NCBI GenBank assembly: GCA_046261875.1 | Contig: JBHENW010000200.1 | Location: 1-60,438 of the forward strand | DNA: 60,438 bases | Direction: 5' to 3' | Source: Thermoanaerobaculia bacterium | GTDB lineage: Bacteria > Acidobacteriota > Thermoanaerobaculia > UBA5066 > Gp7-AA6 | Shown: positions 19,447-58,486 of the stretch, one piece after another | Position numbering within the stretch: position 1 is the stretch's first letter | Layout of the letters: each line of letters starts with the position of its first letter | Position numbers and translations under genes: made by a program | The notes under the pieces: model-generated | Seen by the model: the letters and a program-made list of their open reading frames with translations, nothing else | Databases searched by the model: none | What the model was told of the DNA's origin: nothing

Positions 19447-20127
19447 ATGAAGCTCTCGCTCCCGGACCAGTCGCGTCTCGTGTCGGCGTTCTGGAAGGAC
19501 CTGCCTCCGGTCTGCCCCAGGCACGACCTCCCGATGCGGTCCTTCTTCGTGGAGCGGGTCTACAAGCCACAGGTCGTCATGGTCTGCGCGAAGGGCGAGA
19601 TGTTCCGCTTCGATCAGAAGCCGAAGCAGATCGAGTTTTCGCGGCCGCACCTGAAGACGATGGTGCTCGATGCGCAGGAGCGGGAGTCTCCCGCGTGCGC
19701 CCAGGACTTCACGCCCCTCGTCGTCTACCGGACGCCGGCCAAGTTCATCCCGAAAGGCTGGGACTACTCCTTCATCTGTCCCAACTGCCTTTCCTACGGA
19801 CAGTGGATCGACACGGGACGCCCCGAAGAAGACGTCACGGCCGCGCCGATCCAGAAGAAAGAAGCGCCCCCCTTCCACGACGAGACCCTCCCGCTCCCGA
19901 AGCGGATGGACATGGCCAAGGAGGGGGACCTCAAGACGAAGCTCTACGCCGCCATGGCGCAGACGGACTGCACCGCTTGCGGCTATGACTGCGAGGGATA
20001 CGCCTACGCCCTCGCCGACGGCTCGGAGAAGGATCCGAATCTCTGCGTCCCGGGCAAGGAGGAGACGGCCCGCGTCGTCAAGGACCTCCTCAAAGGCACG
20101 GGCCTGCCCGCGTCTTTCGTCGCCTAG
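19447..20127 (+). CDS. Protein with two N-terminal Cys/His motifs and a C-terminal putative [4Fe-4S] domain (PF04060/RnfB-type)
   Basis: CPRH...C, CAQD...CPNC, then AMAQTDCTACGYDCEGYA...LCVPG. Confidence 0.75.
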   Translation: MKLSLPDQSRLVSAFWKDLPPVCPRHDLPMRSFFVERVYKPQVVMVCAKGEMFRFDQKPKQIEFSRPHLKTMVLDAQERESPACAQDFTPLVVYRTPAKFIPKGWDYSFICPNCLSYGQWIDTGRPEEDVTAAPIQKKEAPPFHDETLPLPKRMDMAKEGDLKTKLYAAMAQTDCTACGYDCEGYAYALADGSEKDPNLCVPGKEETARVVKDLLKGTGLPASFVA

Positions 20128-22775: not shown

Positions 22776-22966
22776 ATGTTCCGGAGCGTGACGCCCCGGG
22801 ACAGTGTTTTCATGGATTTGCCGACATTTTAGCCGACGCGAACGTTTTTGTCCTTAGTGGATCGAGCTCCCGCCAGGGAGCACGCGGGATCCGGCGCGCG
22901 ATCGAGCCCCTTTGCGCGAGTCGCGCGCCGGTGCTTCAGCAGATCCCGCGCAAGCGGAGCCGACGG

Positions 22967-24184
22967 CTACTCGTAACGGAGCGCTTCGATCGGGTCGAGA
23001 CGAGCGGCCTTGCGCGCCGGGTAGAAACCGAAGAACACGCCGATGGCTGCCGAGAATCCGAATGCGAGCATCACGGCGGCCGGCGAGATCTGGATCGGCC
23101 ACTGGGCCTTCCAGGCGAGCAGCCGCGAGGCTCCCACACCCAGGGCAATGCCGATCGCCCCGCCCGCGACGGAAAGCGTCAAGGCTTCGATCAGAAACTG
23201 CGTGAGGATGTCCTTCCCCTTCGCGCCGATCGCGAGGCGGATCCCGATCTCGCGCGTGCGCTCCGTCACGGAGACGAGCATGATGTTCATGATCCCGATT
23301 CCGCCGACGAGCAGCGAGATCGAAGCGGCGGAGGCGAGCAGGACGGAGAGCGTCCGGGAGGTCTCGTCCGCCGTCTCGGCGATCTCCTGTTGCGAACGGA
23401 TCTGGAAGTCGGCATCCCCCCCGGGAGGGATGCGATGCCGCTGTCGCAGCAGCGCGTCGATTTCGGACTGCGCCTGCGCGACGGACTGGCGGGAGACGGC
23501 CGACGCCATCACGACGTCGATGCGATTGCGCCCCTTGAGCAGCCTGATCACGGTGGTATACGGGGCGATGACGACGTCGTCCTGATCCTGGCCCGTCGTG
23601 TTGCCGCCCTTCCTCTCGAGCACGCCGATGACGCGGAAGGGAAAGTTCTTGATGCGTATCGTCTCCCCGACCGGGTTCTGGGCATCGAAGAGCGCCTCGG
23701 AAACGGTGGCTCCGAGGACGGCGACTTTGGCCGCCGAGCGCACCTCGGACTCCCCGAAGAACGCGCCACGGTCCACGTTCCAGGCGCGGATGAAAGGCCA
23801 TTCCACGCCGACCCCTTGCGTCTGTGTCGACCAGTTCATCGTTCCGGCGACGATCTGGCCGCTGGCCCGGGCCACCGGCGAGACGTACGAGACGGATGGA
23901 GCCTCCGTCTTGATGGCGGCGACGTCCTCTTCGGTGAGCGCCGAGTCCCCGGTGAAGACGCGGGCGCCCGACTGCGTGGTGGCACCCGGGAAGACCATCA
24001 GGAAGTTGCTGCCGAGGGCGCTGATCTGGGATTGGATCGCGGCCTGCGACCCCTGTCCGACGCCGATCATCGCGATGACGCAGGCGACGCCGATGATGAT
24101 CCCGAGCGCCGTCAGGGTCGACCGCATCTTGTTGCGCACGATGGCCTTGAGGCCGACCTTGAGGATCGTCAGGAACTTAAACAC
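22967..24184 (-). CDS. MacB-type ABC transporter permease
   Basis: MRSTLTALGIIIGVACVI, VGGIGIMNIMLVSVTERTREIGIR, LDPIEALRYE. GTG start at 24184 follows GGAGG. Confidence 0.92.
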   Translation of the reverse strand: MFKFLTILKVGLKAIVRNKMRSTLTALGIIIGVACVIAMIGVGQGSQAAIQSQISALGSNFLMVFPGATTQSGARVFTGDSALTEEDVAAIKTEAPSVSYVSPVARASGQIVAGTMNWSTQTQGVGVEWPFIRAWNVDRGAFFGESEVRSAAKVAVLGATVSEALFDAQNPVGETIRIKNFPFRVIGVLERKGGNTTGQDQDDVVIAPYTTVIRLLKGRNRIDVVMASAVSRQSVAQAQSEIDALLRQRHRIPPGGDADFQIRSQQEIAETADETSRTLSVLLASAASISLLVGGIGIMNIMLVSVTERTREIGIRLAIGAKGKDILTQFLIEALTLSVAGGAIGIALGVGASRLLAWKAQWPIQISPAAVMLAFGFSAAIGVFFGFYPARKAARLDPIEALRYE

Positions 24185-24959
24185 GGCACACTCCTCCCGC
24201 ACGCCGCCGCTGGGAGACGGGATGGTCCTCGACGACCTGCCCGTCACGGAAAACGACGATGCGTCGGGCGTACTCGGCGATGTCGGCTTCGTGGGTGATG
24301 ACGACCACGGTCTTGCCGTCGTCGTTGAGCGCCTGGAAGACGCCCATGACCTCTTCGGAGGTCTTCGTGTCGAGGTTTCCGGTCGGCTCGTCCGCCAGGA
24401 TGAGTTTGGGGTCGTTGATGAGCGCACGGGCGATCGCGACGCGCTGCTGCTGGCCGCCGGAGAGCTGGCTGGGGAAGTGGCCTTCCCGCCCCGCCAGGCC
24501 CACGATGGCCAGGCACCGGCGCGCTTTCGCTTCGCGCTCCGCCGACGTGAGCCGACTGTTGGCCGAGTAGATCAGGGGGAGCTCGACGTTCTCGATCGCG
24601 GAGGTGCGCGCGAGGAGGTTGAAGGATTGGAAAACGAACCCGATCTTCCCGTTCCGGATCTCGGCTCGCTCGTCCCGGTCGAGCCCGGACACGTCCTGCC
24701 CATCGAGGAAATAGCGGCCCGAGGTGGGTCGGTCGAGGCATCCCACGATGTTCATGAAGGTGCTCTTGCCGGAGCCCGAAGGTCCCATGACCGCGACGAA
24801 CTCTCCCGGCTCGATCGAGAGCGACAACCCGTCGAGCGCCCGCACTTGCACCTCGCCCATCTGATAGACGCGCTCGAGGTGTTCGATGCGGATGACGGAA
24901 GGTGTCGATCCGGGGTCGGTCCGGAGGGCCCCGACCGCCGCGGACTCCGAAAGGGCCAT
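24177..24959 (-). CDS. MacB-type ABC transporter ATP-binding protein
   Basis: GPSGSGKST, IGFVFQSFNLL, LSGGQQQR, DEPTGNLD. Confidence 0.92.
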   Translation of the reverse strand: MALSESAAVGALRTDPGSTPSVIRIEHLERVYQMGEVQVRALDGLSLSIEPGEFVAVMGPSGSGKSTFMNIVGCLDRPTSGRYFLDGQDVSGLDRDERAEIRNGKIGFVFQSFNLLARTSAIENVELPLIYSANSRLTSAEREAKARRCLAIVGLAGREGHFPSQLSGGQQQRVAIARALINDPKLILADEPTGNLDTKTSEEVMGVFQALNDDGKTVVVITHEADIAEYARRIVVFRDGQVVEDHPVSQRRRAGGVCRV

Positions 24960-26215
24960 CAGAACCCGCGGCGGCCGCCGCCGCCGGCGCCGCGCCCCGC
25001 GGGGCCGGTCCCGGAGATCTGCGCGCGGGCGGTCGCGACGCCCGTGACCACTGCGTCCCCCTCTTTCAGGTCGCCCGAGACCACCTGGGTGTACCGGCCG
25101 TCGGTGATTCCGGTGCGGATCGCAACCGGCTTCGGATCGCCGTCGGGCTCCGCGGGAGCCGCATAGACCGTCTGGGGACGAAGAGCGACCGCGCCGGCCC
25201 GTCCACCTCCGGCGGTCCGTCCGAACTGGCGAGTCGCCGCCGCCGGCCCCGTCGCTGATCCCGTGCGCGCCGCCCGCTCCTCCGCCGAAGTCGCGTCGGT
25301 CACCTCGGGGCGGAAACGGAGGGCCGCGTTCGGAATCCGGAGGACGTCGCGGACGCTCTCGACGTCGATTGTGACGTTCGCGGTCATCGTCGGACGCAAC
25401 AGCATTTCCGGGTTGGAGACCTCGACGATGACCGGATAGGTGACCACGTTCTGGTTGACGGTCGCATTGAGCCGGATCTGGCTCACCCTGCCCCGGAACT
25501 CCCGCTCGGGGTAGGCATCCACGTTGAACCGGACGGGCTGTCCGACCTTCACCCCTCCGATGTCCGACTCCGCGATGTCCGCAGCGACCTGCATCTTGGT
25601 GAGGTCCTGCGCGATCGTGAACAGGGTCGGCGCCTGAAAAGAGGCCGCGACCGTCTGTCCCACGTCGTATTGCCGCGCGACGACGACTCCATCGATCGGC
25701 GCCTCGATCTTCGTGTAGCGAAGGTCCGTGAGAGCCTGGTCGAGCGCCGCGCTGGCCTGGCGCACGCTGGCGCGGGCGACGTCCGCGTCCGCCTTGGCCT
25801 GGTCATAGTCCGCCTGCGGCGTGAGCTGCTGCTGCCTCAGGGCTTCCTGCCGGCGCAGAGAAATTTCCGCGTTGCGCAGCTCGATCTGCGCTTTCTGGAG
25901 GGCTGCGCGGCTCTGCTCGACGCGCGCCTCGAATGGGGTCGGATCGAGCTCCGCGAGGAGGTCGCCCTTCTTGACCTGGCTGTTGAAGTCCGCGTGGAGT
26001 CTCGCGATGATCCCGGAGACCTGGCTGCCGACCGCGACCGTCGTGACGGCGGAGAGAGCTCCGGTCGCCGTGACAGTCTTCGTCACGGTGCCGCGGTCCA
26101 CTTTCGACGTGCGGTACTTCGGTTCGGACTTGCTGCGGCCGCCCACGAGGAAGAGCACGCCGGCGACCGCGCCGACCGCAACGAGAACCCAGATCAGCGT
26201 TTTTCTCGTCTTCAT
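24959..26215 (-). CDS. MacA-like periplasmic adaptor (membrane fusion protein)
   Basis: N-terminal TM, VGSQVSG, IEAPIDGVVV, GQTVAASFQAPTLF, LRIPNAALRF. Confidence 0.92.
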   Translation of the reverse strand: MKTRKTLIWVLVAVGAVAGVLFLVGGRSKSEPKYRTSKVDRGTVTKTVTATGALSAVTTVAVGSQVSGIIARLHADFNSQVKKGDLLAELDPTPFEARVEQSRAALQKAQIELRNAEISLRRQEALRQQQLTPQADYDQAKADADVARASVRQASAALDQALTDLRYTKIEAPIDGVVVARQYDVGQTVAASFQAPTLFTIAQDLTKMQVAADIAESDIGGVKVGQPVRFNVDAYPEREFRGRVSQIRLNATVNQNVVTYPVIVEVSNPEMLLRPTMTANVTIDVESVRDVLRIPNAALRFRPEVTDATSAEERAARTGSATGPAAATRQFGRTAGGGRAGAVALRPQTVYAAPAEPDGDPKPVAIRTGITDGRYTQVVSGDLKEGDAVVTGVATARAQISGTGPAGRGAGGGGRRGF

Positions 26216-26312: not shown

Positions 26313-27473
26313 CTAGTGGAGGAGCTCGAAGATGCGCTCGAGCTGCGCCAGGCCGGTTTGCAGGAGGAAGGTCCTGGCGCGCCCGTACGACTTTGCGCCG
26401 ATGAGGAAGAAACCGGGCTCTCCCGAGGCGAGATCGGCGGGCGCGATCGCCGGCACGGAAAGGCAGTCCGTGACGTTCGCCAGCGCGCGAGAAAGGCGGC
26501 CGGCCCCTTCGGTCGAAGGAGAAATCTCCAGGGGCAGCTCGCTCAAGAAAGTCAGGTCCGGCCTGTAACCCGTCAGGGAGACGATCTCATCGAATTCGCC
26601 GGAGCGGTCTCCCGAGAAGCGCGCTTCGACGGCGCCCCTCCCGTCGGAGAGCGCTTCGGCCGCTGCGCGGCGGTGAACGGTCAGGTATGGCGCTGGATCC
26701 GCCGCGAGGTCGTTGGCTCCGGCGGTGATGCGCGCGCGCTCCGGAAGAGGATCGTTCGCCACCTCCATGCACGGGCGGCGGTTCGGCGAGCGGACTGCCC
26801 ACGTCACGCGCGTGGCGGGGTGGCGTCCGGCGATCTCGCTCAGCCGGAGAATGGCGGTCGCCGCCGAGTGACCGTGCCCCGCGAGTAGGATCCGCCGGCC
26901 GGCGAGCCCGCCGGCGCGTTCCGCCAGGGCTCCGAGGTCGCGGATGATGCGGCCATCCATCCGCGATTCGCCCGGAGCCGGAACCCCTCCGGCGCCCAGG
27001 GCGTTGGGCTGCCCCGTGACGCCCGACGCGTCCATGAGAGCCTCGGCCTCGAACACGGACTCTTCGCCGTCACGGCGGGCCAGGACGCGGAAGGGACGCT
27101 CCGCGCGCAGCGGGTGTCCGCCGAAGTCCATGCGGGTCAGCCCCGCCCTTCCGACCGAAAGGACCTCGTGCCCCGCCCGGATTCTCCCGGCGAGGGCCGG
27201 CGACTGGGCGAGAGGGCGCAGGACGGCGTCCACCATTTCCGGGCCCGTCAGCAGGGTCTCCTCGGACGGCAGACGCCCGCCGAGGACGCGGCGCATCGCG
27301 GGCGAGACGTTCATGCTCAGCGGAGTGAAAAACCGGGTCGGGCCCCACCGGTCGAGCCCCGCCCCGACCTCCGCTTTCTCCAGAACCGTCACGTCGAACC
27401 CCCGCTCGACCCCCTCGAGCGCGGCGGCGAGCCCCATGGGGCCCGCCCCGATGATCAGCAGGCGCCGTGGCAG
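26313..27473 (-). CDS. FAD-dependent monooxygenase/oxidoreductase (type seen in ars clusters)
   Basis: LLIIGAGPMG Rossmann fold, DASG...PN.LG.GG.PA.GE, GHGHSA, DPLPERA, GAKSYGRARTFLL. The first in-frame start before the FAD motif is CTG at 27473. Confidence 0.85.
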   Translation of the reverse strand: MPRRLLIIGAGPMGLAAALEGVERGFDVTVLEKAEVGAGLDRWGPTRFFTPLSMNVSPAMRRVLGGRLPSEETLLTGPEMVDAVLRPLAQSPALAGRIRAGHEVLSVGRAGLTRMDFGGHPLRAERPFRVLARRDGEESVFEAEALMDASGVTGQPNALGAGGVPAPGESRMDGRIIRDLGALAERAGGLAGRRILLAGHGHSAATAILRLSEIAGRHPATRVTWAVRSPNRRPCMEVANDPLPERARITAGANDLAADPAPYLTVHRRAAAEALSDGRGAVEARFSGDRSGEFDEIVSLTGYRPDLTFLSELPLEISPSTEGAGRLSRALANVTDCLSVPAIAPADLASGEPGFFLIGAKSYGRARTFLLQTGLAQLERIFELLH

Positions 27474-27477
27474 CGGC

Positions 27478-27807
27478 TCACCCTTTTCGCGCGATCGTGT
27501 TGCAGGCCTGGACCCAGTGCGCGATGGTTCCTCCGCCGCGAATGACCGCGGCCACGTTCACCGCTTCCGACATCTCCTCCGGAGATATCCCGGCGTCGGT
27601 GCACGCCGAAGCATAGGAGTCGATGCAATACGGCTCCTGGATGGCGTACGCCACGGCGAAGGCGATCAGCTTCTTGGTCCGATCGTCGAGAGCGCCCGGG
27701 CTCATCGTCGCCGTGTACCACTGGAGAAAGAGATCCCAGAGCTTCGGCTGCGTCTTCCCCATCTCGGGGAAGCGGGCGAGGTCCTCGGAAAGGTAGTAGC
27801 TCGGCAT
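27478..27807 (-). CDS. AhpD/CMD-family protein resembling the arsenosugar-locus peroxidase-like family
   Basis: MPSYY...DL..F, GALDDRTKKLIAFAVA, QEPYCIDSY, EMSEAVNVAAVIRGG. ATG at 27807. Confidence 0.8.
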   Translation of the reverse strand: MPSYYLSEDLARFPEMGKTQPKLWDLFLQWYTATMSPGALDDRTKKLIAFAVAYAIQEPYCIDSYASACTDAGISPEEMSEAVNVAAVIRGGGTIAHWVQACNTIARKG

Positions 27808-27815
27808 GTGCGTTC

Positions 27816-28595
27816 CTAGTGGAGTCCTTTCTCCCGCTCTTTGGCAGGCAGAATCTCCAGACAGGTGGTCCACCAACCGGTCCGGATCGTTTCGATGAAC
27901 TCGGTGGGGAGACCTTCCCCGGCCATCTCCCGCGCGAGCGCCTCGTGGTCGTAGACGACAGGGACGAACTCGGCGTCGACCTCCGTCCCGAATCGCAGGG
28001 TGGCGTACCAGACGTTCGTATGGCCGTCGTTGGCCGGCCGGCCGAGGACGCCCGCGTTGAGGACGAGCCTCCCGGACGGTAGCCGCCGCTTCCAGTGAAG
28101 GCCCGTGTGGGTGCACACGAGCACGTCGGCCTCGGCGTCGGACAGCAGCTTCTCCAGGAACGGAACCGGAGAAGTCGATTCCCAGAGGAACTCGTTGATC
28201 CTTCGGGGCGACCCGTGGACGAGGAGGACGCGGCGGCGGCCGATCTCCAGCCGGCGGGTCTTCGGCAGGTCGCCCATCCAGACCTTCCACGCGGGCGACG
28301 TCCGCGCCGCCGTGTAGTCATAGGAGATCTGGGCGAACTGGTTGTCCCGCGGATCCGTGTACCCGCAGTGGCAGTCCTCCGCGCCGGAAGAAAGGCTCTC
28401 CTCGTAGTTCCCCTGGATCGCCTCGACGCGGTTGTCGCACAGGATCGGGAAGACCCGATCCGGGTTCGGGCCGAAGCCCCCGAAATCCCCGAGGGCGAAG
28501 ATTCCATCCACGCCGCGGCGCCGGACGTCGTCCACGGCGGTCTCGAGCGCGCGCCAGTTGCTGTAGATGCCCCCGAAGAAAGCGAGGCGGGTCAT
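27816..28595 (-). CDS. Metallophosphoesterase-fold protein with degenerate metal motifs and a CxC motif
   Basis: GGIYSN, LGDFGGFGP, QGNYE, DCHCGY, VHGSP, CTHTG, NAGVLGRP. ATGA overlap with the radical SAM stop. Confidence 0.82.
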   Translation of the reverse strand: MTRLAFFGGIYSNWRALETAVDDVRRRGVDGIFALGDFGGFGPNPDRVFPILCDNRVEAIQGNYEESLSSGAEDCHCGYTDPRDNQFAQISYDYTAARTSPAWKVWMGDLPKTRRLEIGRRRVLLVHGSPRRINEFLWESTSPVPFLEKLLSDAEADVLVCTHTGLHWKRRLPSGRLVLNAGVLGRPANDGHTNVWYATLRFGTEVDAEFVPVVYDHEALAREMAGEGLPTEFIETIRTGWWTTCLEILPAKEREKGLH

Positions 28596-29494
28596 GTGCG
28601 ACAGGTGACCCCGTACTCGTGGCACGTGAAACAGGCGGCATGGCGCAAGGGGAAGGGGCGCAGCGTGCCGGCGAGGTCCTCGCCCATCCGCGCGGCCGGC
28701 TCCTCGATGAGGATCGGACAGACGTAGACCCCTTTGGACGTCACCATCCGGCAGGAGGAGCACTGGAGGTTGGCGGCCTCCTCCTCCGTCAGGTGCCGTC
28801 CGCGCAGGGTCTCCCAGGAAGCGTAAGCACGCAGGCGGCTTTCCTCCGCGCCGATCCGGAAGAGCGAGAGGATCTTCAACCTCGGGCGCGGGAGACCGAT
28901 CGACCGCATCCAACCGAGAAATGCCGCTCGCCCCTCCGCGGTCGCGGCCTCCCCGCACGCTTCCGTCACCGTCACCACCGGGTTCAAGCCGGCTTCGGCG
29001 AGGTTCCGGATACCCGCCAGGATTTTCTCGAAGGTGCCCGCGCCGCGGATCGGGTCGTTGACTTCCGCCGAGTACCCGTCGATCGAAATCCGGATGTCCA
29101 GCGAATACTCACTCGCGTCGGAGAGCCGGCGCAGCCTGCGGCATCTCTCCGGGTTCAGCAGCAGGCCATTGGTCAGGACCGAAGCGGGTCCCTGACGCAG
29201 CGTCTCCTCGAGGATCGGGAGCATCTCCGGGTTCATGAACGGCTCTCCGCCGGTGAAGTAGTACTCGCGCACGCCGAGCGGTATCGCTTCACGCAGCCGC
29301 CCGCGCACCTGTTCGAGCGTCAGCATCGCGTGGTTGTGGTTGGTCGGAGAGCAGGAGATGAAGCAATGCGTGCAGCGCAGGTTGCACAGTGTGCCTGCGA
29401 CCTGGAACCAGAGGGTGTCCAGGGAAAGCGAGGGCACGAACGGGTACGCCTCGTTCTCGAAGCGATTCCGATTGCCGGGAGCGGCGATTTCCAG
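28592..29494 (-). CDS. Radical SAM protein with Cys-rich C-terminus
   Basis: CNLRCTHC (CxxxCxxC), FTGGEPF, SVLTNG, ISIDG, tail CSSC...CP...CFTC...C. Probable CTG start at 29494, 5 nt after AAGGAG. Confidence 0.9.
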   Translation of the reverse strand: MEIAAPGNRNRFENEAYPFVPSLSLDTLWFQVAGTLCNLRCTHCFISCSPTNHNHAMLTLEQVRGRLREAIPLGVREYYFTGGEPFMNPEMLPILEETLRQGPASVLTNGLLLNPERCRRLRRLSDASEYSLDIRISIDGYSAEVNDPIRGAGTFEKILAGIRNLAEAGLNPVVTVTEACGEAATAEGRAAFLGWMRSIGLPRPRLKILSLFRIGAEESRLRAYASWETLRGRHLTEEEAANLQCSSCRMVTSKGVYVCPILIEEPAARMGEDLAGTLRPFPLRHAACFTCHEYGVTCRT

Positions 29495-29552
29495 TGAAGC
29501 TCCTTCCTGGCCGGAAGCCGGTCGTAAAAAACCCGGGGGAACGAAAAGGAAA

Positions 29553-30272
29553 CTAGGCGGCGGCGGGGGGGGCGCGCAGTCCGTTGGGCGTCGCCGCGAC
29601 GCGGCGCTCGACGGGCCGTTGGCGCTTCGGGGGGGGCGCCAGCCGCGCGAGCGCGCCGCGCATCAGCGCGCGCAGACCGCTCCGCGGCTTTCCGCGCAGT
29701 ATCCGTCGCAGCGCGCGGCGGCCGTCCACGTCCGCCAGGCGGGCGATGACGGCGAGGCGTCTTCCGCGGTGCACGAGCCGGCGGGCGAGAGCGGCGAAGA
29801 CGTCCCGGCGGCGCCGGGGGAGCGTCCGCAGAAGGTCGAGGTCTTCGGGCGGCACGGACAAGAGGGACACCCCGCCGTCCGGCGCGGGGCAGAGGACCGC
29901 GTCGCAACCCTCTTCGAGACGCGCAAACGCGGCGGCCAGCCCCGTCGCCGACGGAGCGACGTCTCCTCCGACGATCACGGCGGGGCCCCCCAGCCGCAAC
30001 GCCTGCGCCGCCACGCCCTTCAGACGCTCCCCGAAGGAGGCGCCTCTCTGCAGGATCGCGAGATCCGGCGCGAAGGCCGGCGCGGTCCGGCGCCATCGCG
30101 CCATGTCCTCGGGAGGCGTGGCGAGAACGAGGCGGGCGCCGACCGAATCGGCGGCTCGCGCCCATCCGGCGGCGAACGCCGCAAAAAGCTCCGCCGCTTC
30201 CTGCCTGTCGAATCCCTTCGCGCGCGCCTCGCGGCCCGGCTCCCGCGCAAAGAGGACCACGTAACGGGACAT
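29553..30272 (-). CDS. DUF2064-family (CofC-like/GT-A) transferase
   Basis: VVLFAREP, QRGASFGERL, VIVGGD, VLCPAPDGGVSL, LADVD. Start at 30272 (alternative 30284). Confidence 0.75.
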   Translation of the reverse strand: MSRYVVLFAREPGREARAKGFDRQEAAELFAAFAAGWARAADSVGARLVLATPPEDMARWRRTAPAFAPDLAILQRGASFGERLKGVAAQALRLGGPAVIVGGDVAPSATGLAAAFARLEEGCDAVLCPAPDGGVSLLSVPPEDLDLLRTLPRRRRDVFAALARRLVHRGRRLAVIARLADVDGRRALRRILRGKPRSGLRALMRGALARLAPPPKRQRPVERRVAATPNGLRAPPAAA

Positions 30273-30333
30273 GTTTTCGGTCATCTTACGTCGGCGCGGC
30301 CCCGCCGGATTCCCGTCGCTTTCTCCAGCGCGC

Positions 30334-30360
30334 AAAAGAAAAAGGGCCCCGAAGGGCCCT
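30334..30360 (-). terminator. Rho-independent terminator after trxA
   Basis: Minus strand reads AGGGCCC-TTCG-GGGCCCT followed by TTTTCTTTT. Confidence 0.85.
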
Positions 30361-30381
30361 CCGCGTTTTCCGCAAGGGGTC

Positions 30382-30714
30382 TCAGAGGTTGCGGTCGATG
30401 AACTTGACGAACTCGCCCCGAGGAAGCGCTCCGAGGACCCGGTCCGCGACCGCGCCGCTCTTGAAGAGGATGAACGTGGGAATCGACGTCACCTGGTACT
30501 TCATGGCCACGGCCGTGGACTCATCCACGTTGACCTTCGCGACCTTGATCTTCCCGAGGTACTGCGTCGCCAGGTCGTCCACGATGGGAGCGACCGTCCG
30601 GCACGGACCGCACCAGGGAGCCCAGAAGTCTACGAGAACGGGGAGATCGCTCTTGAGGATGTCCCCCTCGAAGCTCGCGTCCGAGACCAGGTGCACGTTG
30701 GGGCTTTCCGCCAT
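30382..30714 (-). CDS. trxA: Thioredoxin
   Basis: VLVDFWAPWCGPC, KVNVDE, SIPT. Confidence 0.95.
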   Translation of the reverse strand: MAESPNVHLVSDASFEGDILKSDLPVLVDFWAPWCGPCRTVAPIVDDLATQYLGKIKVAKVNVDESTAVAMKYQVTSIPTFILFKSGAVADRVLGALPRGEFVKFIDRNL

Positions 30715-30788
30715 TCAAATTCTCCTTCCTCGGGACCAAATATGCCGGATCCGTGCCTTTGGATTCGGATGGTACAACGCCCCGCGCC

Positions 30789-31244
30789 TCAGATCGCAGG
30801 GAGCGCGCCGGCGGGTTCGGGCTGCGTCTTCTCGCAGCAGCCGGATCCGGGGCCGCAGTGTCCTTCTTCCTCCAGATCTTCCAGCACCGCGTAGACCTCC
30901 CACTCGTTGCCGTCCGGATCGGCGAGCCAGATCTTCTCCTGGAGCGCATAACAGCACGCCGTCAGGGCTTCGATCCTCGGAGACAAGCCGTTCGCCTCGA
31001 GCCGGCGTCGCCAGCCGTGAACTTCGTCGGGCGACCCGACGCGGATACCGAGGTGCGACAGGACCCCGCCCCCGGCCGGCGCCGTGGTGCTGCCCGGCTG
31101 CAGGGCGAGGTGGATTTCCGGGTTGGCCGTCACGAACTTGACGTACCCCGGTTTCTTTTTTGCCGGTTCCCCGAGGAAACGCGAATAGAACAACGTGGAC
31201 TTCTCCAGGTCCCCGACCTGCAGCGAAATGTGAACCCCCGCCAT
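30789..31244 (-). CDS. arsI: ArsI/CadI-family VOC metalloenzyme (C-As lyase-like)
   Basis: VHISL, SHLG, vicinal ACCYA, DPDGNEWE, C-terminal GCC. Confidence 0.8.
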   Translation of the reverse strand: MAGVHISLQVGDLEKSTLFYSRFLGEPAKKKPGYVKFVTANPEIHLALQPGSTTAPAGGGVLSHLGIRVGSPDEVHGWRRRLEANGLSPRIEALTACCYALQEKIWLADPDGNEWEVYAVLEDLEEEGHCGPGSGCCEKTQPEPAGALPAI

Positions 31245-31262
31245 GATGTCCTCCTATCTATA

Positions 31263-31280
31263 GATCGAGAAATTTCGATC
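31263..31280. promoter_or_regulatory. Putative ArsR/SmtB operator upstream of arsI
   Basis: Perfect inverted repeat GATCGA-N6-TCGATC in an AT-rich spacer, matching the ATCAA-N6-TTGAT-type spacing. Confidence 0.6.
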
Positions 31281-31297
31281 AATCGTGGCAAATTTTT

Positions 31298-31657
31298 TCA
31301 GACCGACCGCGCCGTTTCGCTGGCGACGGATGCGAGCGCCCCCTCGTCGCGGCGATAGAACATCCAGCGCCCGCGCTTCTCGGCGATCACGAGCCCGGCG
31401 CGGCGGAGGATCGCGAGGTGGTGCGACGTGGCGGCCTGCGAAAGCCCGATCGCCTCCTCGACGTCGCAGGCGCAGAGCCCGGCCTCACCCGGCGAAACGA
31501 GCGAACAGCAACTCCCGCCGCGCGCGCGAAGCAGGTCGAGGATCCTGAGCCGGGTCGGATCGCCGAGCGCCCGGAAGGCCTGGATCAGGTCCGGTGAAGC
31601 CGAAACGGAGCTCCCCCGGCCGCTTTGGACCGGCAGGCTCCTTCTCATCGAATCCAT
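31298..31657 (-). CDS. arsR: ArsR/SmtB-family metalloregulator
   Basis: FRALGDPTRLRIL, LCACD (alpha3N-type site), SQAATSHHLAILRRAGLV, RGRWMFY, plus an extra SCCS. Confidence 0.88.
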   Translation of the reverse strand: MDSMRRSLPVQSGRGSSVSASPDLIQAFRALGDPTRLRILDLLRARGGSCCSLVSPGEAGLCACDVEEAIGLSQAATSHHLAILRRAGLVIAEKRGRWMFYRRDEGALASVASETARSV

Positions 31658-31659
31658 AC

Positions 31660-31695
31660 ATCTGCATTCTTAGATACGTTCGCGGCCTCTGTCAA
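31660..31695 (-). promoter_or_regulatory. arsR promoter (TTGACA at 31690-31695) with overlapping operator-like repeat ATCT-N8-AGAT
   Basis: Perfect -35 hexamer, 17 nt to TAAGAAT. The inverted repeat at 31660-31675 has the same ATC-N10-GAT spacing as the arsI site. Confidence 0.5.
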
Positions 31696-32380
31696 CCCCC
31701 CTTTTTGGCCGGCTTTTTCTGTGAACGTGGGCGTGGACGCGGCCCCGGACGTGTGCGAGCCCCTCCCGCAGGAACCACGGGACCATGAGGAGCGAGAGGG
31801 CCGGGTCCAGCCACGCGGGCGCGCCGGCGAGGCCGCCGACCATGGCGAGGAGGGTCAGAAAGGAGAGCGCGGAGCAGGAGATCGATTCCTTGGCTTCCGC
31901 CGCGAGGCCTTGGCTGCCGAGCACCCGGGCCGTCCGCCACTTGAGCCATCCGATGATCGGCATGCCGAACGAAGCGAAGATCGTCAGGAAGAGTCCCAGG
32001 ACGCTCTCCTCGGCGTGGCTCCCGGCGGTCAGCTCGTGCACCCCCCGCACGAGAACGTAGGCGGCCAGGAGGAGGAAGGAAACGCCGATCCAGCGGGCGA
32101 GGTTGCGGTCGTGGCGCGCGTGGTCGGTCTCCTCGTCTGCCAGGCGGCGCAGGTGGCGGACGGCGAGAAACGCGGCTCCCCCCTCGATCGCGCTCTCCAC
32201 CGAGAAGGCCAGGAGCGCCAGGCTTCCCGTGCGGATCGCCTCGTAGAGGCCGAGCCCCCCTTCGCCGAAGACGTGCAGAAAGGTCAGCCCGAGGAGCCAG
32301 TACATCCGGCGTCGGAGGGCCTCTTCCCTCGCGGCCGGGGGGGCGATCACAGGGCCCGCCGTCGCGGTCGCGTCTCCCAT
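31670..32380 (-). CDS. Cation diffusion facilitator-like transporter (TM domain only, TMEM163-like)
   Basis: GSLALLAFSVESAIE, six TM segments, LAAEAKESISC, WLDP, His-containing tail. Confidence 0.78.
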   Translation of the reverse strand: MGDATATAGPVIAPPAAREEALRRRMYWLLGLTFLHVFGEGGLGLYEAIRTGSLALLAFSVESAIEGGAAFLAVRHLRRLADEETDHARHDRNLARWIGVSFLLLAAYVLVRGVHELTAGSHAEESVLGLFLTIFASFGMPIIGWLKWRTARVLGSQGLAAEAKESISCSALSFLTLLAMVGGLAGAPAWLDPALSLLMVPWFLREGLAHVRGRVHAHVHRKSRPKRGVDRGRERI

Positions 32381-32439
32381 CCAGCCATTCTATGCAGGCC
32401 CTCGCCGCCGGCCCGCTGCGCGAAATACAATCCCCGGCG

Positions 32440-32805
32440 ATGGCGTTGCCACCAACGATGTTGTGGCGGTTGCGCGTGGCTCGAAGCGCCCGGCTCATCC
32501 TGTGCGTCGCGGCGCTGCTTTCGGTGGCCGGCTCTTTTGGCTTGCACCCCGAGCCGGCCGATTCTTCTTTTCTACCCCTGCCGACCGCGCCCTCCGATGG
32601 ATCGCCGGAGCTCCGCAGAGCGGTCGCCCCGCGGGACAGCTGCATCGCGTGTCTTTCCCAGCGCCCGCACTCTCTCGCCTCGGTCATCGACGCGCCCTCG
32701 GCGCGCATTCGGGTCGTCCCTTACGCGCCCCGGCCGGCGCTTCTCCTTCCCCAGCGGCTCCAAGCCGCGAACCACGAAGGCCGCGCCCCTCCGACCGCCT
32801 CCTGA
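32440..32805 (+). CDS. DUF2946/CruR-like leader protein with CxxC and C-terminal RAPP
   Basis: Hydrophobic N-terminal segment, CIAC (32641-32652), RAPP (32782-32793) just before the stop. TACAAT lies 8 nt upstream of ATG 32440. Confidence 0.72.
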   Translation: MALPPTMLWRLRVARSARLILCVAALLSVAGSFGLHPEPADSSFLPLPTAPSDGSPELRRAVAPRDSCIACLSQRPHSLASVIDAPSARIRVVPYAPRPALLLPQRLQAANHEGRAPPTAS

Positions 32806-32819
32806 CGAGCCGGTCTCGT

Positions 32820-32839
32820 CTTCCGCCCCGCGGCGGAAG
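32820..32839 (+). promoter_or_regulatory. GC-rich hairpin between the RAPP leader and the beta-barrel gene
   Basis: CTTCCGCC-CCGC-GGCGGAAG, perfect 8-bp stem. Confidence 0.5.
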
Positions 32840-32870
32840 GCATTCACGACATTTCGTTACGGGGGGGCCA

Positions 32871-33989
32871 GTGACCAGATCACGCGTTCTTTCCTTTCTC
32901 CTGCTCGCGCTCGCCGCGAGTGCCTTCGCATCCGGGCAGGAGCCCACGCCGACGCCGACACCCACGGCGACACCGGGGCCGGAAGAGACTCCCGCCCAGC
33001 CAACCGGCGCGTCGCCCGCGCCGAACTACTTCAACCCGGCCATCGCCGTGATCGGCAACTTCCTCGGGGTCGCAGGAAAAAACCTGCTCGAGAACCGCGA
33101 TTCCCTCCAGATGCGCGAGTCGGAGATCTCGCTGCAGGCTGTCGTGGATCCCTTCGCCCGCGCGGACTTTTTTGTAGCCGTCACGGACGAGGAGGTCGAG
33201 CTGGAGGAGGGCTTCATCACCTTCACGAGCTTGCCCGCGGATCTCCTCGTCAAGGTCGGAAAGTTCAAGGCGCAGATCGGAAAGGTCAACCTGATGCACC
33301 TGCACCTCCTCCCGTGGGTGGACGTGCCGCTCCCCAACGAGAACCTCATCGGAGGGGAGGAGGGGTGGAACGACGCGGGCGTCTCGGTCGCCCGGCTTTT
33401 CCCGCTACCCGGGGACACTTTTTCCGAGCTCACCTTGCAGGTCTTCCGCGGAAAATCAGAGGGGCTCTTCGACGCGCCCTCCAGGAGCGATCTCGCGTAC
33501 CTCGGCCACTATCGCGCCTACCGTGACTTCGGGGACGATCACAACGTCGAACTCGGAGCCACCTGGGGCCGCGGCTCCAATGGGGCATCCGAGGACGCCG
33601 AGACGACCGTCGAGAACCTCCATCTCGTGTATCGCTGGAAGCCCCTGACGGGACGGCCCTACCGGCAGTTCATTCTCCGAAGCGAGCTCACACGGAGCCG
33701 CCGCGAGCAGCCCGAGGGGCGGCAGAGCGCGCGCGGCTTCTTCGTCGGGGGCGACTATCGGCTGAGCCGCCGGTGGTGGGCGGGCGGACGCTACGAGTTC
33801 GCCGACCGGGCCGACGAAGCGGCGGCGCGGGATCGCGGCGAGGCCGTCACCCTCACTTTCTGGCCGAGTGAGTTCTCTCAGCTCCGGGCCGAAGGGCGCC
33901 GCCGCCGCTACGCGGGAGGCGTGACCGCCAACGAGCTGCTCGTGCAGCTCCAGTTTTCCATCGGCGCGCACGGCGCGCATCCATTCTGA
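32871..33989 (+). CDS. Outer-membrane beta-barrel protein associated with Zn/Mn uptake
   Basis: Signal peptide, Pro/Thr linker, NPAIAVIGNF, ESEISLQAVVDPFARADF, amphipathic strands, C-terminal QFSIGAHGAHPF. GTG start at 32871. Confidence 0.78.
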   Translation: MTRSRVLSFLLLALAASAFASGQEPTPTPTPTATPGPEETPAQPTGASPAPNYFNPAIAVIGNFLGVAGKNLLENRDSLQMRESEISLQAVVDPFARADFFVAVTDEEVELEEGFITFTSLPADLLVKVGKFKAQIGKVNLMHLHLLPWVDVPLPNENLIGGEEGWNDAGVSVARLFPLPGDTFSELTLQVFRGKSEGLFDAPSRSDLAYLGHYRAYRDFGDDHNVELGATWGRGSNGASEDAETTVENLHLVYRWKPLTGRPYRQFILRSELTRSRREQPEGRQSARGFFVGGDYRLSRRWWAGGRYEFADRADEAAARDRGEAVTLTFWPSEFSQLRAEGRRRRYAGGVTANELLVQLQFSIGAHGAHPF

Positions 33990-33997
33990 GGAGCGCC

Positions 33998-34918
33998 ATG
34001 AAGAAAACGGTTTTGATCTGCCTACTCGCCTTCCTGGCCGCCGCGTTCTCCCCGGCCGCCCCGATCCGTGTCGTCACCAGCCTCCAGGACTTCGCCTCGC
34101 TCGCGCAGACGGTCGGGGGCAACCGCGTCGAGACGTTTTCCCTGGCCCGGGGGTATCAGGACCCGCACTTCGTCGAGCCGAAGCCTTCCTTCATCCTGCG
34201 GCTTTCGAAAGCGGACCTCCTCATCGTGGCCGGCCTCGACCTCGAGATTGGATACCTTCCGCCGCTTCTCGACCAGAGCCGGAACGCGAAGATTCGGCCG
34301 GGCGGCCCCGGCCACCTCGACGCCTCCGTCGGATGCGAGATTCTCGAACGACCCCGGGGGGTCGTGACTCGGGCGATGGGCGACGTCCATCCCTTCGGCA
34401 ATCCGCATTACTGGCTCGACCCGTCCAATGGCCGCGTCATCGCTCGCTCGATTGCGTCGCGGCTCATCCAGCTCGACCCGGCCGGCGCCGCGGCCTATCG
34501 CGCGAACCTCGCCGCATTCGAAGCGAAGCTGACGGAAGGCGAGAAGCGGTGGGATGCCGCTCTGGGGCCGTACGCCGGAACCCCGGTCGTGACGTACCAC
34601 AACTCGTGGCCGAATTTCCTCAAGCGCTTTCGGCTCATTGCCACCGGATACGTCGAGCCGAAGCCGGGAGTCCCTCCATCGCCCGCGCACATCGTCTCGC
34701 TCGTCAACCTCATGAGGGAGAAGAAAGTCCGGGTGATTCTCATGGAGCCTTACTTCGACGAACGGACGCCGCGTTCCATCGCATCCCGGACCGGCGCGAA
34801 GCTGCTCACGTTCATCCCGTCGGTCGGGGGCGTCCCCGCGGCGCGCGACTACATCGCGCTCTTCGACTACGACGTGAAGCTGCTGGCGGAGACTTTGCGG
34901 GAGAAGACGGGTCGATGA
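33998..34918 (+). CDS. Metal ABC transporter substrate-binding protein (ZnuA/TroA family)
   Basis: Signal peptide, QDPHFVEPKP, GDVHPFGNPHYWLDP, TYHNSW, EPKPGVPPSPAH. Confidence 0.9.
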   Translation: MKKTVLICLLAFLAAAFSPAAPIRVVTSLQDFASLAQTVGGNRVETFSLARGYQDPHFVEPKPSFILRLSKADLLIVAGLDLEIGYLPPLLDQSRNAKIRPGGPGHLDASVGCEILERPRGVVTRAMGDVHPFGNPHYWLDPSNGRVIARSIASRLIQLDPAGAAAYRANLAAFEAKLTEGEKRWDAALGPYAGTPVVTYHNSWPNFLKRFRLIATGYVEPKPGVPPSPAHIVSLVNLMREKKVRVILMEPYFDERTPRSIASRTGAKLLTFIPSVGGVPAARDYIALFDYDVKLLAETLREKTGR

Positions 34919-35745
34919 CCGTACTCGACGTCCTCCTTCCCGCGTTCGTCGCGGGATTGATCCTCACGGGGATCCACGCCTATCTGGGCGTGCACGTCGT
35001 CGAGCGGGGCGTCATCTTCGTGGACCTCTCGCTGGCGCAGATCGCGGCGCTCGGAGCGACGATCGGCTATCTCTTCGGGTACGACGTGCACTCGGACCGC
35101 GGTTACGTCTTCTCCCTGATGTTCACCTTCATCGGCGCCGCGATCTTCGCCATCACGCGGCCGCGCCACACCACCCGGATCCCGCAGGAGGCCATCATCG
35201 GAATCGTGTACGCCGTCGCGGCGGCCGCCTCCATCCTCGTCATGTCGAAGTCGACGCGGGAGACCGAGCACCTCAAGGAGATGCTCGTCGGAAACGTTCT
35301 TTCGGTCTCCTGGCGGGAGCTCTCCCACATGGCCATGCTCTATGCGGCCGTCGGAGTGTTTCACTGGATCTTCCGGAAAAAGTTCCTGCTCATCTCGATG
35401 AACGAGCAGGAGGCGGTCCGTCAGGGGGTCCGCGTCCGCCTGTGGGACTTCCTCTTCTATGTATCTTTTGGCTTCGTCGTGACCTCTTCGGTGGCGATCG
35501 CCGGCGTGCTGCTCGTTTTCTCGTTCCTGATCGTGCCGTCGGTCTCCGCGATGCTCTTCACCGAGCGCCTGGGGCCCCGGCTGGCGATCGGCTGGACCAT
35601 GGGCGCCATCGTCTCAGCGCTCGGTGTCTATCTTTCCTACCTCCTGGACCTGCCTACCGGAGCCACGATCGTGACGACCTTCGGGGCGGCGTTGCTCCTG
35701 ATGGCTGGCGCCCGCCAGGTTCTGAGTCGGCGGCCCGCGGCATGA
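34915..35745 (+). CDS. Metal ABC transporter permease (ZnuB-like)
   Basis: GIHAYLGVHVVERGVIFVDLSLAQIAALG, GVLLVFSFLIVP, LPTGATIV. ATGA overlap with the SBP stop. Confidence 0.88.
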   Translation: MTVLDVLLPAFVAGLILTGIHAYLGVHVVERGVIFVDLSLAQIAALGATIGYLFGYDVHSDRGYVFSLMFTFIGAAIFAITRPRHTTRIPQEAIIGIVYAVAAAASILVMSKSTRETEHLKEMLVGNVLSVSWRELSHMAMLYAAVGVFHWIFRKKFLLISMNEQEAVRQGVRVRLWDFLFYVSFGFVVTSSVAIAGVLLVFSFLIVPSVSAMLFTERLGPRLAIGWTMGAIVSALGVYLSYLLDLPTGATIVTTFGAALLLMAGARQVLSRRPAA

Positions 35746-56670: not shown

Positions 56671-58086
56671 CTACGACTGAAATGGGTTTCGCCGTTGGAA
56701 CGTCTCTCGAAAGGCCCTAAGGCTGAATGTATCAAGGTCCTTCTGCTTCAAAGACTTTTCGAGAAGGGCAGCTGCAGCACGACCTTCTGGAGTCCTTCCT
56801 TCCTTTCGCAGGATAGGTAGGGCCCATCTTAACTCACTTGCCGCCTCCGATGGCAGATCAAGTAGAAGTGCGACCTCCGAGATCAAGACGGCGACATACG
56901 CGGCAAGCCAAAGCATATCCATAGAAACATACTGACCTTTAGCACGCCGAAACGCCCTCAAAGCTTCGGGGTGCATCGTCTGCACAGATAGGAATCCCCC
57001 GAGGATGGTCCAGAAGTCTGCGCTGCTGGCGGTTGGCTCGGTTCCCTCCAGCATCTGGGCCGCGGAGCGCAGAAACCCTGCTGCCTCCTCATGCCGGCTG
57101 AGTTCTACCAGGGAGTCGGCAAGTTGTGTAAGTACGCGGACCCGGAGTACCGGCCGCTCCTGCACGGAGTCATCGTTCAAAAGTGGCCTAAGTAAGTCAA
57201 CTGCTCGATCCGAGCGTCCTCTGATCTTCTCGGCCATGGCTTCGACGTGTTGGCACTTCGCAGCCCAAACCGGCATTGCGAACCGGTTGAGGATCGCGCG
57301 GACGTTCTGGGATTCTCTTACGACGTCGTCAAATTGATAGTTCAGGTACAAGATCGCCAGTCGAGAGAATGCGATCTTCGCGAGGCCAAAATCCGGATAT
57401 ACGGTATTTAGAAAGAATCCTTCCGCTTGGTTGAACCAATGGGAGGCATCGTCGAGCTTCCCCCGAAATCGCGCTGCCACTCCCGCCATCCAGGATAGTT
57501 CCGCTTTGAAGTACTCTCTCTCGTCAAACATGCCGGCGGGTTCTTTATAAAGTCCTTCCAAGCCTTCTAGTGCACGGCGCGTAGCTCGAGCGGGGGCGCG
57601 CTCCAAGTCTCTAGCTACAGTTGCGCAGTAATTGAAAAAGTTGCCAAGAGAGCCAAGGGGGAACGTCAGCCTTACGTCTGCCTGGTAGGCGTCGCCGGTT
57701 TGCTTGCGCAAAGAACGGAGAGTCTCTGGGTCCAGGCCGCAGGCCGTCCAGCCCATATCTGCCAATCCCCGGAGAAGCTGACGCATTTCCTCGTCGCCCG
57801 CGAGAAGTCCCGGAACCGCCACCCAGGTATAAACCTTATTTAAAACCGCGATATCTAGTCGCCTCTGCCGCCCAGGAAGAACAACATGCATCAATGCGTA
57901 CAGAACGTCCTTCAGGTCATCTCCAGCCACGGCGTGATAGCCGGTTCTCTCGGCAGTTACCTGGTGAAGAAGACGTTCTGCCTGTTGGATAGCCTCGGCA
58001 CGGCCGAGGCCCGTTCGAACGGCCCTGTCTCGGCTGACTGCTAGCCAACTTGGAATTAGCTCAATTAGCTCAGCATCAGTCGCCAA
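56671..58086 (-). CDS. TPR-like helical repeat protein (471 aa)
   Basis: A/L-rich helical repeats. Clear paralogy with 58615-59739 (FDEREY..ELSWMAG vs FDEKDY..ELARFAG). Confidence 0.8.
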   Translation of the reverse strand: MATDAELIELIPSWLAVSRDRAVRTGLGRAEAIQQAERLLHQVTAERTGYHAVAGDDLKDVLYALMHVVLPGRQRRLDIAVLNKVYTWVAVPGLLAGDEEMRQLLRGLADMGWTACGLDPETLRSLRKQTGDAYQADVRLTFPLGSLGNFFNYCATVARDLERAPARATRRALEGLEGLYKEPAGMFDEREYFKAELSWMAGVAARFRGKLDDASHWFNQAEGFFLNTVYPDFGLAKIAFSRLAILYLNYQFDDVVRESQNVRAILNRFAMPVWAAKCQHVEAMAEKIRGRSDRAVDLLRPLLNDDSVQERPVLRVRVLTQLADSLVELSRHEEAAGFLRSAAQMLEGTEPTASSADFWTILGGFLSVQTMHPEALRAFRRAKGQYVSMDMLWLAAYVAVLISEVALLLDLPSEAASELRWALPILRKEGRTPEGRAAAALLEKSLKQKDLDTFSLRAFRETFQRRNPFQS

Positions 58087-58432: not shown

Positions 58433-58459
58433 TGAGATCCTACACCGCTCGCCACGGGC

Positions 58460-58486
58460 TTTTTTTTTCTCTCTCTCTCTCTCTCT
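58460..58486. repeat. Simple sequence repeat T9(CT)9
   Basis: Read directly from the sequence. A G8 run also lies at 58560-58567. Confidence 0.9.

Follow-up and report, generated by a model that had tools for sequence, protein, structure and literature searches.

To our knowledge, only two routes to carbon–arsenic (C–As) bonds that rely on an enzyme of the radical S-adenosylmethionine (SAM) type are known, that of ArsS, which leads to arsenosugars, and that of ArsL, which leads to arsinothricin. ArsS carries a Cys-rich C-terminal domain, DUF3641. It adds a 5′-deoxyadenosyl group to DMAs(III), giving DDMAA (PMC13598754), and the defining feature of ArsL is an arsenite-binding RCCLKC motif at its C terminus (10.1101/2024.02.01.577332). 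The metallophosphoesterase (MPE)-type As(V) reductase Car1 has been described in Rufibacter tibetensis; its Cys74 and Cys76 are reported to be essential and an MPE of ars operons, ‘Orf1’, to be ~40% identical to it (PMC12124457). Here we analyse a gene cluster at positions 26313–31657 of a 60,438-nucleotide stretch of DNA from a soil-type acidobacterium of the Thermoanaerobaculia (GenBank assembly GCA_046261875.1, contig JBHENW010000200.1), hereafter the window, which, judged by its gene families and their neighbourhoods, probably encodes an undescribed route of organoarsenical biosynthesis in which a radical SAM enzyme is central. The window has a G+C content of 68% and its closest relatives are metagenome-assembled genomes (MAGs) of Thermoanaerobaculia (Acidobacteriota).

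An earlier note on this DNA, made from its letters and open reading frames (ORFs) alone, described eight co-oriented genes. All eight are present on the minus strand and their coordinates hold (scores are in bits, each against the cut-off of the model named):

26313–27473, minus strand: FAD/NAD(P)H flavoprotein with two dinucleotide-binding domains; no model at its cut-off; probable CTG start
27478–27807, minus strand: AhpD/CMD-like small redox protein; TIGR04169, full length, 114.1 against 120
27816–28595, minus strand: Car1-like metallophosphoesterase-fold protein (the MPE); Metallophos_2, 39.9 against 27; C75-H-C77
28592–29437, minus strand: radical SAM enzyme, unnamed family; PF04055, 83.3 against 29.5; no NCBIfam model at its cut-off
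29553–30284, minus strand: DUF2064 (GT-A/nucleotidyltransferase-like) protein; Pfam DUF2064, 41.6 against 25.8
30382–30714, minus strand: thioredoxin with a WCGPC motif; TIGR01068, 121 against 97
30789–31244, minus strand: ArsI/CadI-family VOC metalloenzyme (C–As lyase type) with a Cys-rich C-terminal tail; NF041414, 124.7 against 116
31298–31657, minus strand: ArsR/SmtB metalloregulator; NF033788, 86.2 against 55

The last four genes are indeed tightly spaced: the radical SAM and MPE genes overlap by 4 nt, the MPE and AhpD-like genes are 8 nt apart, and the AhpD-like and flavoprotein genes are separated by 4 nt, a gap that is valid only with a flavoprotein start at CTG 27473. We consider it highly probable that the cluster is linked to arsenic. 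Its core would be the conserved pair of radical SAM enzyme and Car1-type reductase, which, with a thiol/flavin redox chain (thioredoxin, AhpD-like protein and YpdA-like flavoprotein) and the DUF2064 transferase, would form C–As compounds; we hold this reading with moderate confidence. The earlier note had proposed a non-canonical pathway for building or dismantling an organoarsenical, and that proposal gains support from fusions to ArsM, from the Car1-type MPE, from the failure of the radical SAM enzyme to match ArsS and from TIGR04282 and TIGR04283 neighbours in related loci.

By its sequence, the radical SAM enzyme is a member of an unnamed family. Its cluster motif, C18-NLR-C22-TH-C25 (CxxxCxxC), is invariant in alignments of 18 and 28 homologues, and five C-terminal cysteines (C226, C240, C269, C272 and C279) are invariant as well; the C terminus reads ...ACFTCHEYGVTCRT, with CHEYGVTCRT as the final residues. 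PF04055 and Fer4_12 are the only Pfam domains matched, with no match to the Pfam SPASM domain or to DUF3641. An auxiliary Fe–S cluster is nevertheless likely, because the best PDB matches of a confident structural model (pLDDT 85) are twitch/SPASM enzymes, namely BlsE, SkfB and anSME. A sequence search of the PDB returned generic radical SAM matches only, and the best NCBIfam match is the Rv1681 family, at 101 bits against a cut-off of 380. In a library clustered at 50% identity, 116 representatives match the enzyme at E ≤ 1e-30, many of them fragments. We found no curated model or publication for this family, for its pairing with a Car1-type protein or for its fusions to ArsM, and the literature searched gave nothing of relevance on DUF2064 together with radical SAM enzymes.

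The impression that this enzyme does not read like ArsS is borne out. Its score on the ArsS model, TIGR04167, is 50.4 bits where 300 are required, and the alignment is confined to the N-terminal half (residues 6–150 on model positions 7–147 of 303), so that identity with ArsS was rejected. ArsL was rejected too: the RCCLKC tail is missing, and the 25 best NCBIfam matches do not include the ArsL model. The N-terminal region, TLW.Q..G..CN..C.HC followed by TGGEP, is shared with ArsS, and adenosylation of trivalent arsenic is also the type of reaction proposed here; by contrast, the C-terminal domain, with five invariant cysteines in a twitch-like arrangement, departs from that of ArsS. A similar mixture is seen at the level of the cassette. 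The ArsS cassette (ArsM and ArsS with TIGR04282, TIGR04283 and TIGR04169 proteins) and the cluster family described here have in common a link to ArsM and their accessory families, which are identical or closely related, but here the partners include a Car1-like MPE and, frequently, a flavoprotein, and the window has no arsM. With the ArsL–ArsM arsinothricin pathway (NF040542), the proposed route would share the formation of a C–As bond on As(III) by a radical SAM enzyme, and ArsM is adjacent or fused in relatives; it differs in the missing RCCLKC motif and in its MPE, FAD and DUF2064 partners.

A central feature of the cluster is the pairing of the radical SAM gene with the MPE gene, which we followed through 79 genome loci, 80 metagenome loci and further loci reached via the flavoprotein and via fusion proteins. 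The MPE gene directly follows the radical SAM gene, at most 1.5 kb downstream, in 54 of the 69 loci with enough downstream sequence, and it does so in 32 of the 45 loci in which the radical SAM enzyme is less than 70% identical to that of the window. A single MPE–radical SAM fusion was found (L164), and its radical SAM part belongs to a sister clade described below. Homologues of the MPE are also encoded on annotated plasmids, where tblastn found 87 records (E values down to 6e-36, 92–99% coverage, 30–34% identity); they occupy the position usually taken by arsC in ars operons, as in the following gene orders:

Paraclostridium: arsR-MPE-arsM
Pontibacter: arsR-DUF6428-MPE-ACR3
Hymenobacter: arsR-DUF6428-MPE-GNAT-ACR3
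Rubrobacter: arsM-arsR-MPE-arsC-arsC-MIP

When these ars-operon MPEs are aligned with the window protein, the CxC pair (C75/C77 in the latter) shows no variation. With Car1 and the ‘Orf1’ MPEs of ars operons, the window protein shares the MPE fold, the GNY[DE] motif and the position of the CxC pair (Cys74/76 in Car1, 75/77 in the window). It differs from them in its coupling to a radical SAM gene instead of ACR3/ArsC, in a GG(I/V/C)YSN motif that stands in place of DxH, and in an extra conserved C-terminal segment, GWWTTCLE(I/V)LP..ER, which in the window contains a third cysteine, C245 (GWWTTC245LEILP). A PDB sequence search with the MPE found only 1NNW and SapH, at ~30 bits. Taking together the MPE fold, the cysteine pair and the kinship to ars-operon MPEs, we assign the window protein to the Car1 arsenate-reductase type; it is a probable thiol-dependent arsenate or organoarsenate reductase.

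The link to ArsM is most direct in fusion proteins. A Thermoanaerobaculia MAG encodes an ArsM–radical SAM fusion (P0368) in which ArsM is complete and the radical SAM domain is 65% identical to the window enzyme (residues 5–281); the fusion gene is followed by homologues of the window MPE (64% identical) and flavoprotein (40%). Fusions of the P0137 type have the opposite domain order, with the radical SAM domain N-terminal and a complete ArsM C-terminal, and comprise ~100 clusters from anammox Planctomycetota and Thermodesulfobacteriota. The ArsM domain of this type scores 237 bits on NF008823 and holds all four ArsM cysteine motifs (CC, GCG, NCV and EC(I)SGA); the fused ArsM domain reaches 226 bits on the model for ArsM of the arsinothricin type. 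The loci with an arsM gene nearby include the compact L115 (ArsM-radical SAM-MPE-FAD) and three of the sister clade, L024, L028 and L168, in the last of which the radical SAM gene overlaps arsM. We take methylation to be part of the route where ArsM is fused or adjacent. ArsM is not nearby in the lineage of the window, and therefore inorganic As(III) may be the substrate there, or else the genes for methylation may lie elsewhere. As the earlier note had said, the 60-kb window appears to lack several partners: tblastn finds no ArsM, ACR3, ArsB or TIGR04283 GT2 in it. The same claim for ArsC stands for the Grx-type enzyme, which tblastn did not find; Trx-type ArsC was not queried.

Other loci with such fusions have neighbours of their own. 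The radical SAM–ArsM fusion genes of a Brocadiaceae locus (L080) and a Thermodesulfobacteriota locus (L082) adjoin membrane glycosyltransferases (GT2 and MptA/PMT_2-type GT-C), and that of L080 also adjoins a Pst-like phosphate transporter and an AhpC-type redoxin; these neighbours hint at a sugar- or lipid-linked arsenical. Locus L001 holds a second MPE copy and an 826-residue SPASM-radical SAM/ArsM fusion.

The DUF2064 and AhpD-like proteins had been taken for families that accompany arsenosugar synthesis. Membership of Pfam DUF2064 is clear, but the cut-offs of the arsenosugar-named models are missed, at 55.4 against 134 for TIGR04282, of which the DUF2064 protein is a distant relative, and more narrowly, as listed above, for TIGR04169. 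True members occur in other loci: genes for TIGR04283 GT2 proteins (cut-off 182) adjoin radical SAM relatives in L083 (229 bits), L153 (217), L156 (219) and L140 (188), and genes for TIGR04282 proteins do so in L153 (143) and L093 (179). The start context of the DUF2064 gene, CGTAAGATG, is conserved in relatives.

The order of genes varies with lineage. Thermoanaerobaculia-type loci have a CDF-like gene, the thioredoxin gene, in some cases DUF2064, the radical SAM gene and the MPE gene, then AhpD-FAD or, in its place, a porin and a PhnS-like ABC transporter, then MacAB; in L083 (Vicinamibacteria) the order is TIGR04283 GT2-AhpD-FAD-radical SAM-MPE. The porin-like protein and ABC transporter replace AhpD-FAD in most Thermoanaerobaculia-type loci (L001, L003–L007, L010, L016, L017 and L019; ~1–7 kb downstream of the radical SAM gene), and the binding protein of the transporter is distantly PhnS-like (2-aminoethylphosphonate type).

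A sister clade of the radical SAM enzyme, ~33% identical and with the same cysteine pattern, is found in Alphaproteobacteria and scores 54–72 bits on the ArsS model. Its members (L025–L079, L151–L168 and L173) have the motifs KF.DP..TA.GE.RA near the N terminus and C..FCVLGGASC near the C terminus. In many marine Roseobacter-group genomes the gene is alone and divergent from zwf-pgl-pgi; zwf, pgl, pgi and gyrA were rejected as functional partners in Alphaproteobacteria, being housekeeping genes. Elsewhere, the clade is accompanied by genes for TIGR04282, TIGR04283, DUF547, DedA, a MerA-like oxidoreductase, a PhnDEC-type transporter and an MPE. One locus, L173, lies on plasmid p546-1 of Roseomonas haemaphysalidis; RefSeq names sister-clade genes on a cultured Roseomonas plasmid simply ‘radical SAM protein’, at a locus that holds an annotated TIGR04282 gene.

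Thioredoxin is kept upstream of the cluster in Thermoanaerobaculia-type loci and is fused to the radical SAM enzyme in P0139. The AhpD-like gene lies immediately upstream of the flavoprotein gene wherever both are found. The flavoprotein gene itself is directly upstream of the radical SAM gene in 16 of the 38 informative distant loci, and two fusions of the flavoprotein to the radical SAM enzyme are known (P0131 and P0150). In the window, none of the codons ATG, GTG and TTG occurs in the flavoprotein frame upstream of the GxGxxG motif, and the first in-frame ATG, at 27437, would remove this motif and truncate the FAD-binding fold. The start is likely to be CTG 27473, 4 nt past the AhpD stop codon. 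Selenocysteine was rejected as a cause of the missing start, the CTG start with a 4-nt gap being simpler.

The flavoprotein had been labelled a flavin monooxygenase. This label is unproven because the protein is not ArsO, has a YpdA/Bdr-like fold and an invariant cysteine (Cys337, with no CxxC), and is preceded by an AhpD-like gene. On the ArsO model, NF040505, it scores 19.5 bits against a cut-off of 425, through the N-terminal Rossmann motif only, and ArsO was rejected. The YpdA/Bdr disulfide reductases (TM 0.65–0.76) are the nearest structures to its model (pLDDT 80), and class B monooxygenases and TrxR-like ferredoxin reductases rank behind them. The similarity to YpdA/Bdr is one of fold only, since the score on TIGR04018 is 39.6 against a cut-off of 339.9, and what we take to be the active-site cysteine of YpdA, in GPCG, is a Met in the window protein (GAGPMG); unlike YpdA/Bdr, the window flavoprotein has an AhpD-like partner and, in some organisms, forms a fusion with the radical SAM enzyme. 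As modelled, it is at least as likely to be a supplier of reductant as a monooxygenase. The arrangement resembles that of ArsT/ArsX, the thioredoxin reductase and thioredoxin of ars operons, in that the genes for a dedicated NAD(P)H flavoprotein and for small thiol proteins lie beside that of an arsenic thiol-reductase.

The ArsR and ArsI-like proteins look genuine. ArsR is 41% identical to E. coli ArsR over 78 residues; its C-A-C aligns with Cys32/Cys34 of the latter, Cys37 is replaced by Glu, and a CC pair lies upstream. The ArsI-like protein matches chains of PDB 5C4P/5D4F, which we take to be Thermomonospora curvata ArsI, at 88 bits, and conserves a His, a Glu and the vicinal cysteines of TACCYA, presumably metal ligands in the case of His and Glu and substrate-binding residues in the case of the cysteines. 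The first metal-ligand position is, we believe, Gln in the solved protein and His in the window protein. The two genes lie between the CDF-like gene and the thioredoxin gene (trx) and, by comparison of loci, are a genome-specific insertion.

The eight genes probably form two or three transcription units rather than one operon, given the promoter-like site ahead of arsR and the strong hairpin, with its T tract, behind trx:

31666..31695, minus strand: sigma-70-like promoter match, TTGACA-18-AAGAAT, just upstream of arsR and inside the 3′ end of the CDF-like gene
30331..30362, minus strand: GC-rich, terminator-like hairpin and T tract in the trx–DUF2064 spacer

The promoter-like site, a consensus match alone, agrees at 10 of 12 positions, and two such sites are seen in 10.5 kb against 0.4 expected. 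The hairpin has a 9-bp stem, in a region that folds at −26 kcal/mol; it is missing in the relatives L086 and L087, where the spacer is ~30 nt. The GCATATTT element upstream of trx is kept in the window, as in L086 and L088. The earlier note had leaned chiefly on the adjacency of arsR and arsI to connect the cluster to arsenic. On its own this adjacency is weak evidence, because the pair is specific to this genome and the genes are probably divided between transcription units.

Regulators of the ArsR type are also found beside related modules. In a Blastocatellia MAG and another acidobacterial MAG (L084, 4152–7659, and L085, 4764–9312), an ArsR-type regulator with a C-terminal vicinal CC pair, a CC-only site that presumably resembles those of methylarsenite-selective ArsR proteins, stands next to a 470–500-residue MPE-like protein (CGC motif; Cys-rich C-terminal half of no known family), followed by AhpD and FAD genes, with no radical SAM gene.

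The co-oriented run extends beyond the eight genes, with the CDF-like gene upstream and MacAB and a histidine kinase downstream. The upstream gene (31670–32380, minus strand) encodes a short CDF-like membrane protein of 236 residues without a cytoplasmic domain; divergent from it (32392–35745, plus strand) lie a small Cys-motif ORF and genes for a porin-like protein, a ZnuA/AztC-like binding protein and a ZnuB-like permease. Thermoanaerobaculia-type loci keep this CDF-like/Znu-type arrangement, whereas relatives of the cluster that are more distant do not. Directly downstream (20124–26215, minus strand) are genes for MacA, a MacB ATPase, a MacB permease and a GAF/HAMP histidine kinase, which are syntenic in Thermoanaerobaculia-type loci only. 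MacAB, the CDF-like gene and the Znu-type genes were rejected as members of the system, since they are limited to such loci and missing from Vicinamibacteria and metagenome relatives. At 56671–60127 (minus strand), where G+C falls to 0.58 against ~0.68, lie three ORFs (471, 374 and 131 residues) of no obvious family. In the 60-kb window, tblastn found no DedA, MerA-like or DUF547 genes, and scans found no Rfam families or tRNAs.

In the proposed pathway, the CxC cysteines of the Car1-like MPE would reduce a pentavalent arsenical to the trivalent state. The resulting disulfide would be re-reduced by thioredoxin, or by the AhpD-like protein together with the NAD(P)H flavoprotein, and the flavoprotein and thiol proteins may also prime the Fe–S cluster of the radical SAM enzyme. 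The latter would cleave SAM and add a carbon radical to As(III), giving a C–As bond, a role for which, on sequence, we judge the case somewhat stronger than the doubt. The radical would most likely be 5′-deoxyadenosyl, as with ArsS, and less likely 3-amino-3-carboxypropyl, as with ArsL; the identification of the added group as 5′-deoxyadenosyl, made by analogy, is tentative and rather doubtful. The DUF2064 protein, or the TIGR04283 GT2 in relatives, would then remodel the nucleoside or sugar part. In this genome only, the arsR-arsI module inserted upstream would add arsenic-responsive control and protection by a C–As lyase.

Much of this machinery would also serve degradation or detoxification, with the radical SAM enzyme as an oxygen-independent C–As-cleaving or demethylating counterpart of ArsI in anaerobes, the Car1-like reductase as the supplier of its trivalent substrate and the thiol/flavin chain keeping its cysteines reduced. 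Carriers of the cluster do include anaerobes (anammox bacteria and Thermodesulfobacteriota), we know of no anaerobic C–As lyase, and the PhnS/PhnD-type uptake transporters and porin that replace or join AhpD-FAD in many relatives would suit the import of an organoarsenical. An ArsI of the C–As lyase type adjoins the cluster here, but among related loci it does so in this one genome only. Synthesis is favoured over cleavage because of the ArsM fusions, which join the radical SAM enzyme to a C–As bond-forming enzyme in >100 clusters, and because of the partnership with GT2 and DUF2064 proteins, which also accompany ArsS; we therefore regard degradation as unlikely. The physiological substrate of the same chemistry could instead be another metalloid or a chalcogen (Sb, Se or Te). 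ArsM enzymes also methylate these elements, several partner families are often selenoproteins or named for selenium (TIGR04167 ‘(seleno)protein’, the ArsM/AhpD selenoprotein NF041537 and, as a weak match, the putative selenate binding protein TIGR04553), and DedA and MerA-like genes accompany the sister clade. Against this, the closest annotated relatives of the MPE lie in classical ars operons with ACR3, ArsC and ArsM, the ArsM domains hold four arsenic-binding cysteines, and this genome adds ArsI and an ArsR with an As(III)-type CxC site, which makes such a substrate very unlikely. A comparably low probability attaches to a housekeeping cluster for redox, cofactor or nucleoside modification that came to lie beside arsR-arsI by chance. 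It would fit the uniqueness of arsR/arsI to this genome and the terminator-like hairpin between them and the downstream genes, the flanking synteny with housekeeping genes such as RibF and with a RimO-like gene (read by eye), and the many relatives that are alone or beside zwf or gyrA. It would leave out the independent links seen in several phyla, namely ArsM fusions or adjacency and the homology of the MPE to ars-operon reductases, as well as the ArsR-type regulators beside MPE-like-AhpD-FAD modules in other Acidobacteriota (L084 and L085) and the true TIGR04282 and TIGR04283 neighbours.

Several observations nonetheless weigh against synthesis of an organoarsenical by the radical SAM–MPE pair. 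An arsM gene lies within 10 kb of the radical SAM gene in just 11 of 166 loci, and none lies in the 60-kb window. Near the radical SAM gene, arsR, arsI and ACR3 were found in 0 of 166 other related loci. The earlier note had reasoned that its proposal would fail if homologous gene blocks had no association with ars genes; in these loci arsR, arsI and ACR3 are absent, but an association with arsM and an ars-type reductase are present. The relatives in Longimicrobiales (46% identical) and most of those in Alphaproteobacteria (~33%) stand alone, the latter adjoining zwf-pgl-pgi. The window clade of MPEs has replaced DxH (GGIYSN in the window), which the ars-operon MPEs keep, and likeness to Car1 was judged from what PMC12124457 reports of it and from the alignment with ars-operon MPEs, not from the Car1 sequence. 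Owing to the hairpin that follows trx, the genes downstream may be uncoupled from arsR, and much of the local gene order (CDF-like gene and MacAB) reflects lineage synteny, not functional linkage. Finally, TIGR04282, TIGR04283 and TIGR04169 owe their ‘arsenosugar’ names to co-occurrence and not to assays.

Synthesis by the conserved pair remains the reading that we prefer. In its widest form, it would make this enzyme a third radical SAM family for C–As bonds beside ArsS and ArsL, obligately paired with a Car1-type reductase and producing an undescribed organoarsenical. The family is widespread in soil Acidobacteriota, anammox bacteria and sulfate-reducer lineages, with a sister clade in Alphaproteobacteria that includes marine Roseobacter-group genera. 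We put this forward as a possibility that the comparisons bring close to, but not past, an even case. If true, a third family would alter which organisms are credited with producing organoarsenicals in soils, wastewater and the sea. Its weight would lie in having a reductase partner of its own and in its occurrence in abundant uncultured Acidobacteriota and anammox bacteria, with the sister clade in marine Alphaproteobacteria. The genes would provide markers for a pathway that arsM-based surveys miss, and the newly described Car1 type of reductase would gain a new role, that of feeding trivalent arsenic to a radical enzyme.

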